DNA of 64,000 nt from Candidatus Buchananbacteria bacterium CG10_big_fil_rev_8_21_14_0_10_33_19. Its GTDB lineage: Bacteria; Patescibacteriota; Patescibacteriia; 2-01-FULL-39-33. A model generated the notes under the pieces. That model did not search any database, was not told the DNA's origin, and saw only the letters and a program-made list of their open reading frames with translations. The stretch spans positions 218,221-282,220 of the forward strand of contig PEZY01000005.1 of the NCBI GenBank assembly GCA_002773855.1, in the 5' to 3' direction. A program made the translations under genes and the position numbers. Positions 1-13,577 of the stretch are shown here, piece after piece. The first letter of the stretch is position 1. Each line of letters opens with the position of its first letter.

Positions 1-2
1 TT

Positions 3-1019
3 ATTTTTGCTTAAAAATAACTCCAAGCCATTATTATTGGTAAAAAAATAATAATTAATACCATCAACAATTGGCGTAATAGGTGTACTATAAACACAAC
101 TACCATTATTAATATTAGCCGATGGATTATAATTTAAAGCTTGTTTGTCATTACAGCCAGACAATAAATATGTACAGCTGCCATTATCAATAGTAGCTGA
201 CGAATTATAGTTAGTAGCTGAAGCATCCATACAACCAGGAACTTGATTGGAATCATAAGAACAATTGCCACTATCAACTGTGGCCTGAGAATTATAATTT
301 ATCGCCTTTTCATCAGTACAGCCCAAAATTATACAGCTATCATCATCTATAGTAGCTGATGAATTATAGTTATTAGCTAATGTATTAGTGCAACCAGAAA
401 TAACACATGAACCATCATCAATAGTAGCGGTTGAATTATAATTATTAGCTAATGGATTAGTGCAACCATTAACATTATAAGTGCAACTACCGTCATCAGT
501 AGTAGCTAGTGAATTATAGTTGGTAGCCAGTGGATCAGTACAACCAATAACAGCATAATTACAAGATCCATCATCTTGATTTGCTAGTGAATTATAGTTG
601 GTAGCTAGTGAATCAGTGCAACCAGTTACCGGTAATACACAAGAACCATTATCGGTGGTAGCACTGGGATTATAATTAATAGCTAGTGGATCAGTGCAAC
701 CAATTACTGGTAATATACAAGAACCATCATCTACCGTAGCGCTAGAATTATAATTAATTGCTGTTTGATCAGTACAGCCAGACACAGCGTAAGAGCAACT
801 ACCATCATTAGTTGTAGCACTAGGATTATAATTATTAGCTGCTGGGTCAGTGCAACCAGGTATCACCACTGGCGATCCGCCGCCGCCACCACCAGTATTG
901 GTATTGGCGCTAGGAATATTAGCATTTACCGTAACACTGGTTGCTAAAACTGAAAAAGCAGAGAATACTAACAATATTAAAATTAAAATTATAAATATTC
1001 TTTTAGCAAAAAAATTCAT
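3..1019 (-). CDS. Secreted tandem Cys-repeat protein. Partial: the C-terminus runs off the window start.
   Basis: Minus-strand ATG at 1019-1017, open frame to position 3 with no stop in the window (hence absent from the ORF track). N-terminal signal peptide MNFFAKRIFIILILILLVFSAFSVLATSVTVNA, a Gly6 linker, then at least 10 tandem ~26-aa modules GCTD(P/S)xAxNYNxxAT(T/I)DDGSCxY. The ~78-nt DNA periodicity is visible (gtgcaacca recurs every 72-79 nt). Confidence 0.6.
   Translation of the reverse strand, partial: MNFFAKRIFIILILILLVFSAFSVLATSVTVNANIPSANTNTGGGGGGSPVVIPGCTDPAANNYNPSATTNDGSCSYAVSGCTDQTAINYNSSATVDDGSCILPVIGCTDPLAINYNPSATTDNGSCVLPVTGCTDSLATNYNSLANQDDGSCNYAVIGCTDPLATNYNSLATTDDGSCTYNVNGCTNPLANNYNSTATIDDGSCVISGCTNTLANNYNSSATIDDDSCIILGCTDEKAINYNSQATVDSGNCSYDSNQVPGCMDASATNYNSSATIDNGSCTYLLSGCNDKQALNYNPSANINNGSCVYSTPITPIVDGINYYFFTNNNGLELFLSKN
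60..900 (-). repeat. Tandem coding repeat, ~78-bp period, at least 10 copies, inside the surface-protein gene
   Basis: The motif gtgcaacca / ttatagttggtagc recurs at 388, 460, 537, 616, 694, 771 and 850. Each copy encodes GCTDxxAxNYNxxAxxDDGSC. Confidence 0.7.
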
Positions 1020-1948
1020 TTATTTTTATTTTTTATTTTAACTACAAAACCCACTATGAAAACCAAAGAAACAATGACTAATAAGATTAGTGGCCAAGGT
1101 ATTACCCAAAAATATATTGGTTTTGATTCAATACTTTGGTCATTACCATAGTCTACAATCGCCTTGGCGCTAAATCTGCCTACTGAAAAATCTGTTAATT
1201 GACTGACAATTTTGGATATAAAATTAAACTGATCACTGTCAGCATGCCAAGCTGTATTAAAAATTCTATTGGAATTTGGCAAAATAGCACGCTGTTCCTG
1301 ATTAATTGGTAGCACTTCAACAGTTTTACCTAAAAAATTTTTAATAATAACAGACCCCTGCGGTTTTAAATGAATATTTCCTATGTTTCTCAATCTAAGC
1401 AAAAAATCAATACTAGTATTAGTATATATATCTTTTGACTCTCTTAATTCAAAATTATTAATTTCTAAATTATTGTTTATTTCGCCATTTACTCCCAGCA
1501 ACATCAAAACTCCAACCCTACTAGCAATGAGAGTTTGATGACTTTTTTCTGTTTTTGGGGCAGTTGATGATTGCCACATAACTGCCAAATAATAACCACC
1601 AACATCAGCTGTAACTGGCACAGTAACAATAACTGGCACAGTAATCCCTTCACCTACTTTTAAAACCAAGGAATTAATTGGTAATTTAATCCAATTAACC
1701 GAACTATCTGTGATATCAAATGGTAAAATATCTGCCTGACCATTTTCACCATTAGGTACAAATTTTTCTATTACACCATCAATGAATAAATCATCCGTAG
1801 TCTCATTATATAGAGTGATTTCGCGTGTTATAGAATCACCTGGATCTAACTGTAAGTCAATAATGGCTGGCGACACAGTTATAGCATCAACTCTAAATGG
1901 ATTCAAAATTAATAATATAAATAAACTAAAAAAATAATAAATTTTCAT
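1016..1948 (-). CDS. Secreted surface protein with a C-terminal transmembrane anchor. The architecture resembles DUF916/CscA-type cell-surface proteins (inference).
   Basis: Signal peptide MKIYYFFSLFILLILNPFRVDA. C-terminal hydrophobic helix VIPWPLILLVIVSLVFIVGFVV followed by the basic tail KIKNKNK. Its TGA overlaps the downstream ATG (ATGA at 1016-1019), suggesting translational coupling. Confidence 0.5.
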   Translation of the reverse strand: MKIYYFFSLFILLILNPFRVDAITVSPAIIDLQLDPGDSITREITLYNETTDDLFIDGVIEKFVPNGENGQADILPFDITDSSVNWIKLPINSLVLKVGEGITVPVIVTVPVTADVGGYYLAVMWQSSTAPKTEKSHQTLIASRVGVLMLLGVNGEINNNLEINNFELRESKDIYTNTSIDFLLRLRNIGNIHLKPQGSVIIKNFLGKTVEVLPINQEQRAILPNSNRIFNTAWHADSDQFNFISKIVSQLTDFSVGRFSAKAIVDYGNDQSIESKPIYFWVIPWPLILLVIVSLVFIVGFVVKIKNKNK

Positions 1949-1953
1949 ATATT

Positions 1954-2664
1954 CTAAAAATTAGCCGTGGCTGTATAAACAATAGTGGTAGTATAAATAC
2001 CAGATGATTCTGTGCCATCTATGTTGGCTATAAAATTAATATCAAAAACTGTTTCATTAATTGGATTACTAGAATTTACTATTTCATCACCGCTACTAAA
2101 GGCGTACTGGCCAACTGAATTATAAGGCGATATCGTAGATGCTACCGGACTAGTACCACTACTATAAATAGCATTAAAACCGAACTGACTAGTGCCAGCA
2201 CTAGAGCCACTAGCACTAGCGCCAATGGCCGTAATAGTATTAACTGATGAGCAAGCCGAGCAAGTCAAAGTACTACCGCTATAAGTCACACTCACCCCAG
2301 CTGATTCATTAGTAAAAACATTGAGTGTGATAGCACCAGTGGCCGTGGCACTAGTGCTTAAATTACCAAATTCAACAGAAGATTGACTAGCACTCAAAAA
2401 TAAAATGGAATACTCACTATTTCTAAATCCAGCCCCAATATTATTATTGGTTGACGAGGAATGACTAGCTATAATACCACCAATGGTATCTGCCAAATCA
2501 TAATTACTTGAGGACTGATCTTCACCGCCACCGGATGATAAAGCATCCTGCCAAATGTGGTAATTACTTGAGGTCATAGCTGCATCCAAAATACCAGGAA
2601 ACAACAACAAAACTACCAAAAAACATGCTAATATATTTATAAATTTAATCATAATAAAAAACAA
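1954..2664 (-). CDS. Secreted Ser/Thr/Gly/Ala-rich beta-type surface protein, possibly WxL-like (low confidence)
   Basis: N-terminal signal/TM segment. Mature part is low-complexity S/T/G/A/N-rich and contains an IWQDAL motif. First gene of a three-gene minus-strand operon, 5 nt upstream of the next gene. Confidence 0.45.
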   Translation of the reverse strand: MFFIMIKFINILACFLVVLLLFPGILDAAMTSSNYHIWQDALSSGGGEDQSSSNYDLADTIGGIIASHSSSTNNNIGAGFRNSEYSILFLSASQSSVEFGNLSTSATATGAITLNVFTNESAGVSVTYSGSTLTCSACSSVNTITAIGASASGSSAGTSQFGFNAIYSSGTSPVASTISPYNSVGQYAFSSGDEIVNSSNPINETVFDINFIANIDGTESSGIYTTTIVYTATANF

Positions 2665-12329: not shown

Positions 12330-13577
12330 TTAAGCCTTTATTTTTCTAATCAAACTCATATTCACTATATCATATTTTGTACTAACTTCCACATAATATA
12401 ATTCAGCAGTGCCGCCACGAATTTTATCTAAACTTTTACCATTTTCGGTAAAAAATTCTTTAAATTTAATTTTATATACATCTCGTGGTGTCAAAATTTC
12501 AATATTTTCATTAGAGTCCAAGGAATTATGAGCTTTCAATGTTATTGTTTGACGACTACTATTTAATTTTTCTACTCCCACTACTTCCCCCACAAATTCC
12601 CAATCACTCATGGCCTTAGAGGTTTTAAATTCCTGTCGACTATTATTCTCATCACCCAATAAAAAACCAGTGGTGTAACCACGATTATCTATCTTATTTA
12701 ATTCACTTTTTATTTCTTTTAATTTTTTATTTTTTGGATCACTGTTTTCAACAATTAATAAATCCATCGCCTGACGATAAGCTCTGATGACTGTGGCTAA
12801 ATAATAAATACTTTTGGTGCGACCTTCTATTTTAAAAGACACTATCCCCGCTTTAGATAAAGATTCTAAATGATTCATTAAATTTAAATCCTTAGAGTTC
12901 ATAATATAGGTGCCATTTTCATCTTGTTCAACCGGGATCATTTCGCCTGGTCGCTTCGGTTCTTCTAAATAAACATTGTAATTCCAACGACAGGATTGTG
13001 TACACATCCCCAAATTAGCACTCCGCTTGTTAAACCAAGCTGACAGATAGCAGCGCCCAGAATAACTCATACACATAGACCCATGCACAAATATTTCCAA
13101 TTCTACCTTAGGTACTTTTTTATGAATCTCAACAATATCTACTAGTGATGTTTCTCGCCCCAGAATTACTCGCTCCACGCCTTGATCTTGCCAAAATTTA
13201 ACAGCTTCATAATTTAAAGTATTCATTTGTGTCGATAAATGAACTGGAATTTCCGGGATAATTCTTTTGACTACAGCCAAAACTCCTGGGTCAGCCAAAA
13301 TAATAGCATCAGGTTTAAATTCTTTTATTTTTTTTAAATAATTTGGCAACAATTTAAAATGCCGGTTATGAGCAAATATATTAATCGTAATATATACTTT
13401 TTTACCAAGTTGATGAGCATAATCGATACCAATTTTAATATCTTTTAAATCAAAATCAGTTTTCGCTCTAAGTGAATAGGCTGGTAAACCAATATAAACG
13501 GCATCGGCGCCATAGGCGAAAGCAATTTTTAATTTCTTTAAACTGCCGGCTGGTGCTAATAATTCAATTCTTTTCAT
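12330..13577 (-). CDS. Peptidase U32 family protein (collagenase-like / RlhA-YhbU type)
   Basis: MKRIELLAPAGS...ADAVYIG...E..VHGSMCMSYSGRCYLS, the characteristic U32 Cys motif. Confidence 0.85.
   Translation of the reverse strand: MKRIELLAPAGSLKKLKIAFAYGADAVYIGLPAYSLRAKTDFDLKDIKIGIDYAHQLGKKVYITINIFAHNRHFKLLPNYLKKIKEFKPDAIILADPGVLAVVKRIIPEIPVHLSTQMNTLNYEAVKFWQDQGVERVILGRETSLVDIVEIHKKVPKVELEIFVHGSMCMSYSGRCYLSAWFNKRSANLGMCTQSCRWNYNVYLEEPKRPGEMIPVEQDENGTYIMNSKDLNLMNHLESLSKAGIVSFKIEGRTKSIYYLATVIRAYRQAMDLLIVENSDPKNKKLKEIKSELNKIDNRGYTTGFLLGDENNSRQEFKTSKAMSDWEFVGEVVGVEKLNSSRQTITLKAHNSLDSNENIEILTPRDVYKIKFKEFFTENGKSLDKIRGGTAELYYVEVSTKYDIVNMSLIRKIKA

Follow-up and report, generated by a model that had tools for sequence, protein, structure and literature searches.

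In animals, MPEG1 (perforin-2) contains a "truncated EGF-like" module, a small folded hinge that bridges the MACPF and P2/MABP domains (PMC6989145, PMC7593815) and is unresolved in the pore state (PMC9713709); perforin-2 has been proposed to rotate about this hinge during pore formation. In bacteria, tandem small modules are already known as stalks of surface proteins, and genomes of the Candidate Phyla Radiation (CPR, or Patescibacteria) encode large cysteine-rich extracellular proteins for which a role in attachment has been proposed (PMC4736985). The WxL clusters of Firmicutes link bacterial and host surfaces (PMC10599100). The present study concerns a repeat-protein gene whose first 339 codons occupy positions 3 to 1019, on the reverse strand, of a 64,000-nucleotide stretch of contig PEZY01000005.1, the whole of which is called the window here. 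This fragment probably encodes the outer part of a Patescibacteria surface protein that is anchored in the membrane, an acidic, disulfide-closed stalk that would stand in a complex resembling those of the WxL clusters.

The repeat array

The reading frame is open over all 339 codons from an ATG at 1017-1019, without stop codon or frameshift, and six metagenome loci that were fetched have 0 mismatches to window 1-1019 and all 10 units. The gene is missing from the list of open reading frames (ORFs) solely because it has no stop within the window, since the list omits frames that run off the source; the remainder of the gene falls past the window edge. The parts of the fragment are as follows:

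96..857, reverse strand: array of 10 tandem Cys-loop units, residues 55-308, supported by Tandem Repeats Finder (TRF), regular expression, profile searches and AlphaFold2 (AF2)
942..1019, reverse strand: start codon and Sec-type signal peptide, residues 1-26 (MNFFAKRIFIILILILLVFSAFSVLA), with a Kyte-Doolittle value of 3.17 for residues 8-26
909..941, reverse strand: conserved strand-like motif TSVTVNANIPS, residues 27-37, directly after the signal peptide, as seen in the N-termini of family members
876..893, reverse strand: Gly6 linker, residues 43-48, with a Pro-rich linker at the same place in orthologs
3..95, reverse strand: first 31 residues of the following non-repeat region (VYSTPITPIVDGINYYFFTNNNGLELFLSKN), which lead into the first of two family-wide beta-sandwiches

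The signal peptide is followed by a short segment (TSVTVNANIPSANTNT) and then by GGGGGG at residues 43-48; the cleavage site after VLA was read by eye from the ortholog alignment, with no prediction tool. The ten units lie at residues 56-75, 82-101, 108-127, 134-153, 160-179, 186-205, 210-229, 234-253, 263-282, and 289-308. The Cys-to-Cys span is exactly 20 residues in 10/10 units, and the linkers between them are 6, 6, 6, 6, 6, 4, 4, 9, and 6 residues long. The unit in the window can be written G-C-[TMN]-[DN]-x-x-A-x-N-Y-N-x-x-A-x-x-[DN]-[DNS]-[GD]-[SN]-C, and an alignment of the di-repeats of the window shows no variation in the columns G, C, A, N-Y-N, A, and C. A regular expression for the motif has 10 matches in the protein, compared with a mean of 0.0175 (maximum 2) over 20,000 shuffles of the same protein, and finds no further copy in any frame of the 64-kb window. 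The array is strongly acidic, with 25 D+E versus 2 K+R, and the fragment contains 5.9% cysteine versus 0.94% across the window proteins overall. The AF2 model of the window array, based on an alignment of 88 sequences, has a mean predicted local distance difference test (pLDDT) score of 89.5, with values above 90 through most units; it consists of a compact loop per unit with only single-residue or 2-3-residue beta bridges and no globular packing.

The original prediction, which was made from the window alone, had described a coding gene with its ATG at 1019, a signal peptide, and a Gly6 linker, absent from the ORF list for want of an in-window stop, and these points agree with the findings above. 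The periodicity of about 78 nucleotides or 26 residues that it had proposed is also found by TRF (period 78, 73-74% matches). Its count of "at least 10" cysteine-pair repeats is correct as to tandem repeats and is now exactly 10, as the array ends at window 96. Of the two motifs that it had named, NYN, called invariant, is present in all window units, while DDGSC is a consensus only, with the variants NDGSC, DNGSC, DDDSC, DSGNC, and NNGSC.

The complete protein and its membrane base

Leftward extension of the gene, as had been suggested, was possible on public contigs. The exact 310-residue protein encoded upstream is present on 23 of them, and on the longest identical locus (L001; Joint Genome Institute (JGI) 3300008093) the gene is complete, with a product of 920 residues and an array that still has 10 units. 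The signal peptide and the units are followed by a region of about 220 residues, a hydrophobic segment (residues 528-546) that continues into ...IPWWNITTYFQYIFTEPLAWFFRRKKKGWG, a CarboxypepD_reg domain, a second hydrophobic hairpin (about residues 700-730) that continues into KRLAAKEK, and a second CarboxypepD_reg domain; the protein ends in a charged, disordered tail with a terminal KFG. PF13620 matches two stretches of the C-terminal part (E = 1e-12, 48.7 bits versus a cutoff of 32.3). The juxtamembrane motif ...IPWW..Y.QY.FTEPLAW.FRRKKKGWGVVYNS is present in the L001 translation, outside the window, and in relatives. The protein therefore shares with the CarboxypepD_reg membrane family two PF13620-type beta-sandwiches, a helix pair before each, and the juxtamembrane motif. 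Since the complete gene encodes a membrane module, the product is membrane-anchored rather than freely secreted or S-layer-like, contrary to the original prediction. A sorting domain of the type IX secretion system (T9SS), whether Por_Secre_tail or CHU_C, was not found in the 920-residue protein with Pfam.

A search with the non-repeat part (residues 318-920) found 154 relatives of the base, and the named ones are mostly Patescibacteria (Buchananbacteria, Falkowbacteria, Magasanikbacteria, and Parcubacteria). The closest genome is a metagenome-assembled genome of Candidatus Buchananbacteria (Patescibacteria group, Parcubacteria group), at about 64-66% identity; together with the relatives of the base, this places the source, a tiny groundwater bacterium, among the CPR. 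The part that is constant across the family comprises two membrane-proximal beta-sandwiches and the membrane module, while the distal ectodomain varies. The nearest relatives (P0122-P0127 and P0131) have a Cys-loop array as ectodomain, others (P0132, P0134, and more) an FN3-type array, P0147 and P0150 an "SSNY" domain with Cys-rich segments, P0159, P0169, and P0188 a cohesin-like N-terminus, and P0168 and P0214 a type-IV-pilin-like N-terminus. Judged from these alignments, the N-terminal ectodomain is swapped between Patescibacteria lineages on a conserved base.

The AF2 model of the ortholog P0122 (mean pLDDT 70.9) has two beta-sandwiches at about residues 295-470 with pLDDT above 90, followed by a helix pair (494-518/521-539), a sandwich (548-646), a second helix pair (654-684/688-708), and a last sandwich (717-798). 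The folds matched by the sandwiches of this model in Foldseek are generic to surface proteins: Bacillus anthracis TIE, SdrD B domains, and the extenders of Ca2+-stabilised adhesins. A strand motif (with variants such as DVNINARI, NVNIGATVPS, and SVNIGGTVPS) immediately follows the signal peptide in about 30 of 76 family members and leads into a Gly- or Pro-rich linker. Its carriers include P0122-P0146, P0198, and P0210, with Cys-loop, FN3, or other ectodomains alike, and it may act as a strand for docking or as a signal for sorting.

All 20 cysteines of the 920-residue protein lie inside the units, and each unit is probably closed by a disulfide between Cys1 and Cys20. This intra-unit bond is favoured because every array opens with the first cysteine of a unit and closes with the last cysteine of a unit, because the 920-residue protein has no cysteine elsewhere, and because a second protein of the same locus has a lone unit that holds its only two cysteines. 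The second protein is a secreted protein of 1421 residues, encoded two genes downstream of the repeat gene and outside the window (L001:14538-18803), with a single Cys-loop unit (GCTDSGAANYNPLANEDDSSC) at residues 1336-1356 near its C-terminus, followed by a Thr/Pro-rich tail; since it carries the unit too, the organism uses the Cys-loop more than once at this locus, in two surface proteins or more. The earlier proposal that each module has two cysteines which form a disulfide of their own is thus probably correct. Disulfides between units, from Cys20 of one to Cys1 of the next, were considered and rejected in view of the array ends and of the single-copy proteins with two cysteines.

Copy number and repeat dynamics

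Orthologs have 4-12 units, while the six independent, identical assemblies, from JGI samples 3300008093, 3300025139, 3300007986, 3300004210, 3300008017, and 3300025158, all have 10, so the variable repeat number that had been expected is found between species and not within the population. The units within the gene have a mean identity of 66% in protein and 70% in DNA (maximum 85%), and slippage is unlikely because the units are only about 70% identical in DNA and contain no long identical tracts. The linker pattern is kept by position in orthologs: linkers of 6 residues make up one block and linkers of 4 residues the next, after which come a single SYDxxxxPG linker of 9 residues and a last 6-residue linker; gains and losses of units are confined to the middle linker blocks. 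Rapid variation at the population level is rejected on account of the six identical assemblies together with the diverged units, and copy number, as far as these sequences indicate, shifts on evolutionary rather than population timescales.

The unit in other organisms and in perforin-2

The 339-residue fragment has at least 4,295 significant relatives, with whole-fragment E-values down to 1e-133 and typically 40-60% identity. Among the matches listed, most of the named relatives either belong to the Flavobacteriales and carry T9SS sorting domains or stem from TARA ocean data; a protein from Woesearchaeota and one from the haptophyte alga Prymnesium parvum are also among them. A hidden Markov model (HMM) of the di-repeat matches 20,983 cluster representatives at E <= 1e-3, 11,328 at <= 1e-10, and 3,375 at <= 1e-30; the largest array example is a protein of 6,618 residues with 111 matched stretches. 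The consensus over 3,584 distinct units is x-G-C-T-D-[PS]-x-A-x-N-[YF]-[ND]-[PSA]-x-A-[TN]-x-D-D-G-S-C, with frequencies of 0.90 for A, 1.0 for Y/F, 0.94 for the second A, 0.75 and 0.80 for the two D, 0.81 for G, and 0.78 for S, those of N8 and Y/F9 being imposed by the regular expression used for selection. The 20-residue span from Cys to Cys is found in 2612 of the 3194 units scanned (82%). About 20% of units elsewhere have an extra cysteine at position 7, which none of the window units has. The window array belongs to this family by its 20-residue span, its conserved core, and its significant profile match, which extends to MPEG1.

The Pfam domains that co-occur with the unit are all extracellular: Por_Secre_tail, CHU_C, FG-GAP, fn3, PG_binding_1, Lcl_C, Big, and the C-terminal domain of the crAss muzzle protein. 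No Pfam or NCBIfam model matched the unit in the 339-residue fragment, and most of the array-rich relatives listed carry no precomputed Pfam domain. The extracellular location that had been proposed is in keeping with the signal peptide, the confinement of cysteine to the repeats, and the presence of relatives in T9SS-exported, wall-anchored, and phage proteins. In other proteins the units sit between functional domains and a T9SS, transmembrane (TM), or wall anchor. Arrays in Flavobacteriales, Woesearchaeota, Prymnesium, and phages usually have an N-terminal functional domain on one side and a C-terminal sorting or anchor domain on the other, whereas in the present protein the array stands at one end and the Patescibacteria-specific TM and CarboxypepD_reg module serves as anchor. 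Matches of the fragment to PsaN, DUF7097, and pilin are at noise level, and where relatives match PsaN, the alignment covers no more than the GSC-x5-GC junction.

In viruses the unit is found less often. PHROGs gave one weak match, to a virion structural protein, and tblastn against 50,697 phage genomes matched a single marine virus; phages are thus not the main reservoir, given one match among so many genomes. A fold search of BFVD found the array in 13 proteins of marine crAss-like and uncultured viruses, with weaker scores for cyanophage proteins and a giant-virus MACPF protein. The last of these is the MACPF domain-containing protein A0A3G4ZMM5 of Terrestrivirus, a weak structural match to the array (E = 0.02), which hints that the pairing of MACPF and Cys-loop known from MPEG1 may also occur in giant viruses. 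The occurrence in Flavobacteriales, archaea, an alga, phages, and animal MPEG1 indicates that the unit is specific neither to CPR nor to symbiosis.

The only solved protein found with the unit is MPEG1 (PDB 6U2J, 6SB1, 6SB3, and 8A1D). A direct PDB sequence search with the 339-residue fragment gave nothing meaningful, while a profile derived from the window matches MPEG1 at E = 0.0011. An independent profile, for which 132 diverse units were taken from other organisms, matches human MPEG1 at residues numbered 331-353 in 6U2J and 332-354 in 6SB3 with E = 1.6e-6 and the mouse protein with E = 5e-4; the next-best PDB sequence is at E = 0.81. The human and mouse modules have the 20-residue loop from Cys to Cys and nearly the full consensus. 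They differ from the present protein in that a single copy lies inside a metazoan pore-forming protein, whereas here ten tandem copies lie N-terminally in a bacterial membrane protein. A canonical EGF domain has six cysteines and three disulfides in about 40 residues; the unit has two cysteines in 20 residues, and no EGF-family Pfam model matched the window fragment at E <= 10. Because the unit has two cysteines and not six, the label "EGF-like" misfits the MPEG1 module. The identity of the unit with the perforin-2 hinge, as suggested by these profiles, appears to be new, and so does the definition of so common a unit without a Pfam or NCBIfam match. A full-text literature search for its motif strings returned irrelevant papers only.

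The three-gene cassette

In the genomes compared, the repeat gene appears as the last of a conserved cassette of three genes, which encode a small secreted protein, a WxLIP-like protein, and the large protein. The two upstream genes are:

1016..1948, reverse strand: protein of 310 residues with a signal peptide, two immunoglobulin (Ig)-like domains, a C-terminal TM helix, and a KNKNK tail
1954..2664, reverse strand: first gene of the cassette, a small secreted protein of 236 residues (232 by the JGI call)

The small protein has an "MTSSNY...GGG...SSNY" N-terminus and a "...TATANF" C-terminus, and matched no known family in Pfam or, as a small-protein profile, in the PDB. Upstream of its gene lie rpoC and then rpoB. 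The start of the repeat gene and the stop of the 310-residue gene overlap by 4 nucleotides (1016-1019), which suggests translational coupling, and the repeat protein probably works with two co-transcribed partners. The trio is kept in the Buchananbacteria genome with identities of 58%, 54%, and about 65%. A cassette of about 230 + 315 + 1000 residues is also kept in L007, L008, and L009; in L008 the sizes are 229 + 316 + 1046 and in L009 213 + 289 + 317 + 964 residues, and these are distant family members with other ectodomains.

Relatives of the 310-residue protein are hypothetical proteins without a precomputed Pfam domain, and the named ones are from Patescibacteria or unclassified bacteria. 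The window protein alone has no Pfam match. PF06030, the WxLIP peptidoglycan-binding domain (formerly DUF916), is matched by 16 of 36 members of the family (best E = 4.4e-5), the family profile matches EfmWxLIP1 in the PDB at E = 1.6e-4, and the paralog in L009 scores 26.5 bits versus a cutoff of 27.3. The 310-residue protein thus appears to be a remote relative of the WxL-interacting proteins (DUF916/DUF3324) of Gram-positive bacteria. Like a WxL cluster, the cassette has a small secreted protein, a WxLIP relative with two Ig-like domains and a TM helix, and a large protein whose N-terminal ectodomain varies; unlike in WxL clusters, it is a membrane module of its own, and not a WxL domain, that anchors the large protein, and the WxLIP match is remote and under the gathering score. 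A domain common to the small and large proteins, as a WxL cluster would predict, was looked for and rejected (hhalign probability 9.7%). The cassette is called WxL-cluster-like, and not a member, because neither the small nor the large protein yielded a WxL domain and the two are not related to each other. The combination of the Cys-loop unit with a Patescibacteria-specific, ectodomain-swapping membrane anchor in a cassette that contains a WxLIP relative also appears to be new; a literature search for Patescibacteria together with the carboxypeptidase regulatory-like domain found no paper.

The "SSNY...GGG" motif that opens the small protein also opens the large proteins P0147-P0150, a weak similarity by BLAST (E = 0.001 over 39 residues). 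It could represent a fusion that hints at a functional link between the small and large proteins.

Possible function of the array

Given the features described above, the following arrangement is the most probable. After cleavage of the signal peptide, the membrane-distal end would consist of the short conserved strand and the flexible Gly linker, and the ten 20-residue mini-domains, each closed by its putative disulfide, would be strung into an extended, strongly acidic rod. The rod would be mounted on the two beta-sandwiches and on the C-terminal multi-helix membrane module with its two CarboxypepD_reg (transthyretin-like) domains. The base stays constant across Patescibacteria, with the distal part exchanged among a Cys-loop array, an FN3 array, and a cohesin-like or pilin-like domain. 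The large protein, the TM-anchored WxLIP-like Ig protein, and the small secreted protein would probably form a surface complex analogous to that of Gram-positive WxL clusters, in which the array could serve as a stalk, resistant to proteases and shear, that projects the tip of the protein past the cell wall; the array itself might also offer a contact surface. Structural reach is the most likely job of the array, and a structural role, either as reach or as hinge, is argued because the unit is a connector in MPEG1 and in most of the T9SS, TM, or wall-anchored proteins. The extenders of adhesins, such as SdrD B repeats and the Ca2+-stabilised Ig-like domains of MpIBP and SiiE, would be comparable as tandem small rigid modules that project from the envelope, and the beta-sandwich part of the P0122 model matches their folds. 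The Cys-loop unit differs in that it has only about a quarter of their size and next to no regular secondary structure, and would be held by a disulfide instead of an Ig fold.

Several points weigh against this arrangement. Only a short strand and a linker lie distal to the array, so that a pure spacer would hold up almost nothing, which favours the array or the strand as the tip. Positive charges follow both helix pairs (RRKKK and KRLAAKEK; L001:~12500-13500, residues ~528-800, and residues 494-708 of P0122), and by the positive-inside rule both CarboxypepD_reg domains would lie in the cytoplasm, while a reading with four spans would place them outside; the topology is ambiguous. Comparison of the whole array with the PDB by Foldseek gave no match (best E = 2.8), so the structural equivalence with the MPEG1 module is a matter of sequence profiles. 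Candidates for a disulfide-forming enzyme (DsbA- or VKOR-like) were not found by a CxxC-motif screen of the ORFs in the 64-kb window, which leaves a gap but does not refute the disulfides. All scores for WxLIP similarity are under the Pfam gathering cutoff, and Pfam found no WxL domain in the small-protein family or in the large protein.

Alternatively, the array may be a host-attachment adhesin, as had been proposed from the window, in which the units bind a glycan, protein, or mineral surface of the host of an episymbiont, with multivalency provided by the array. This is possible, although unlikely. Within a protein anchored at the surface the array takes the most distal place, and the ectodomain is the part swapped between lineages, as would be expected of a determinant of specificity. 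Among the marine phage proteins with the unit are a crAss-type muzzle protein and a cyanophage PA14-domain protein, both plausibly in contact with a host, while the attachment proposed for large Cys-rich CPR proteins and the surface-linking role of the WxL clusters that the cassette resembles point the same way. However, units are mostly found in stalk position beside an anchor, and in MPEG1 as a hinge between domains; the unit is abundant in marine Flavobacteriales and hence not tied to episymbiosis; and the surface-exposed x positions are variable, while the conserved residues look structural. The conserved D/N positions of the unit suggest another role, in which each loop coordinates a cation through D4, N9, N/D11, D17, and D18 and the array is an extender made rigid by Ca2+, similar to the extender domains of RTX adhesins or to thrombospondin type 3 repeats. 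Across the 3,584 units these positions have D at 0.69, N at 0.99 (imposed by the selection), N/D at 0.85, D at 0.75, and D at 0.80, the array is strongly acidic, and the folds matched by the rest of the protein include the Ca2+-stabilised adhesins 4p99 and 2yn5. This metal-binding polymer is nevertheless very doubtful, as no TSP_3, dockerin, or EF-hand Pfam model matched at E <= 10 and the paper on the 2.4 A structure of human MPEG1 nowhere mentions calcium (PMC6753088).

A freely secreted or S-layer-like repeat protein, for which the window alone would speak with just a signal peptide and repeats, is extremely improbable: the full gene encodes a conserved membrane module as well as hydrophobic helices, no match to an SLH or S-layer family was obtained, and the base is common to 154 relatives. 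The membrane-anchored stalk is preferred over each of these. A wider proposal, rather improbable as a whole, sees in the three-gene cassette an undescribed surface system, found throughout Patescibacteria and distantly related to WxL clusters. The large protein would then be a transmembrane adaptor whose swappable ectodomain, here the Cys-loop rod, contacts a host or substrate. The strand after the signal peptide would dock into the WxLIP-like partner, and the CarboxypepD_reg domains, if cytoplasmic, would with the [KR]FG C-terminus link contact on the outside to a partner within the cell. In parallel, the Cys-loop would be an ancient extracellular module, horizontally mobile and common to bacteria, archaea, algae, phages, and metazoan perforin-2.

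A definition of the unit would annotate a large share of the surface "dark matter" of marine Bacteroidota (about 21,000 clusters, with proteins of several thousand residues). Treating the perforin-2 hinge as a member of a large microbial repeat family would correct its label and provide thousands of sequences that bear on rigidity and flexibility. The cassette with its lineage-swapped ectodomain is a testable candidate for the contact structures of ultra-small, probably episymbiotic CPR cells.

Other features of the locus

The sequence x-[FY]-G-COOH closes about 24 of 76 family members (KFG in 9, IFG in 5, IYG in 4, LFG in 2, and RFG, NFG, and QFG in 1 each). This end follows a disordered, charged tail (L001:13681-13689 in the 920-residue protein) and looks like a conserved C-terminal recognition motif. 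A cytoplasmic placement of the CarboxypepD_reg (transthyretin-like) sandwiches would be unusual for the fold. Directly downstream of the cassette are a small HTH_17 (MerR/excisionase-like) gene (L001:14097-14282 and L008:9476-9613) and then a gene for a protein of more than 1000 residues; as two genomes that are only distantly related share this arrangement, conservation of the locus may reach past three genes. The window, with a GC content of 33.6%, carries two tRNAs but no rRNA, and its genes include rpoB, rpoC, a Mur ligase, and ruvA, a content typical of a reduced genome.

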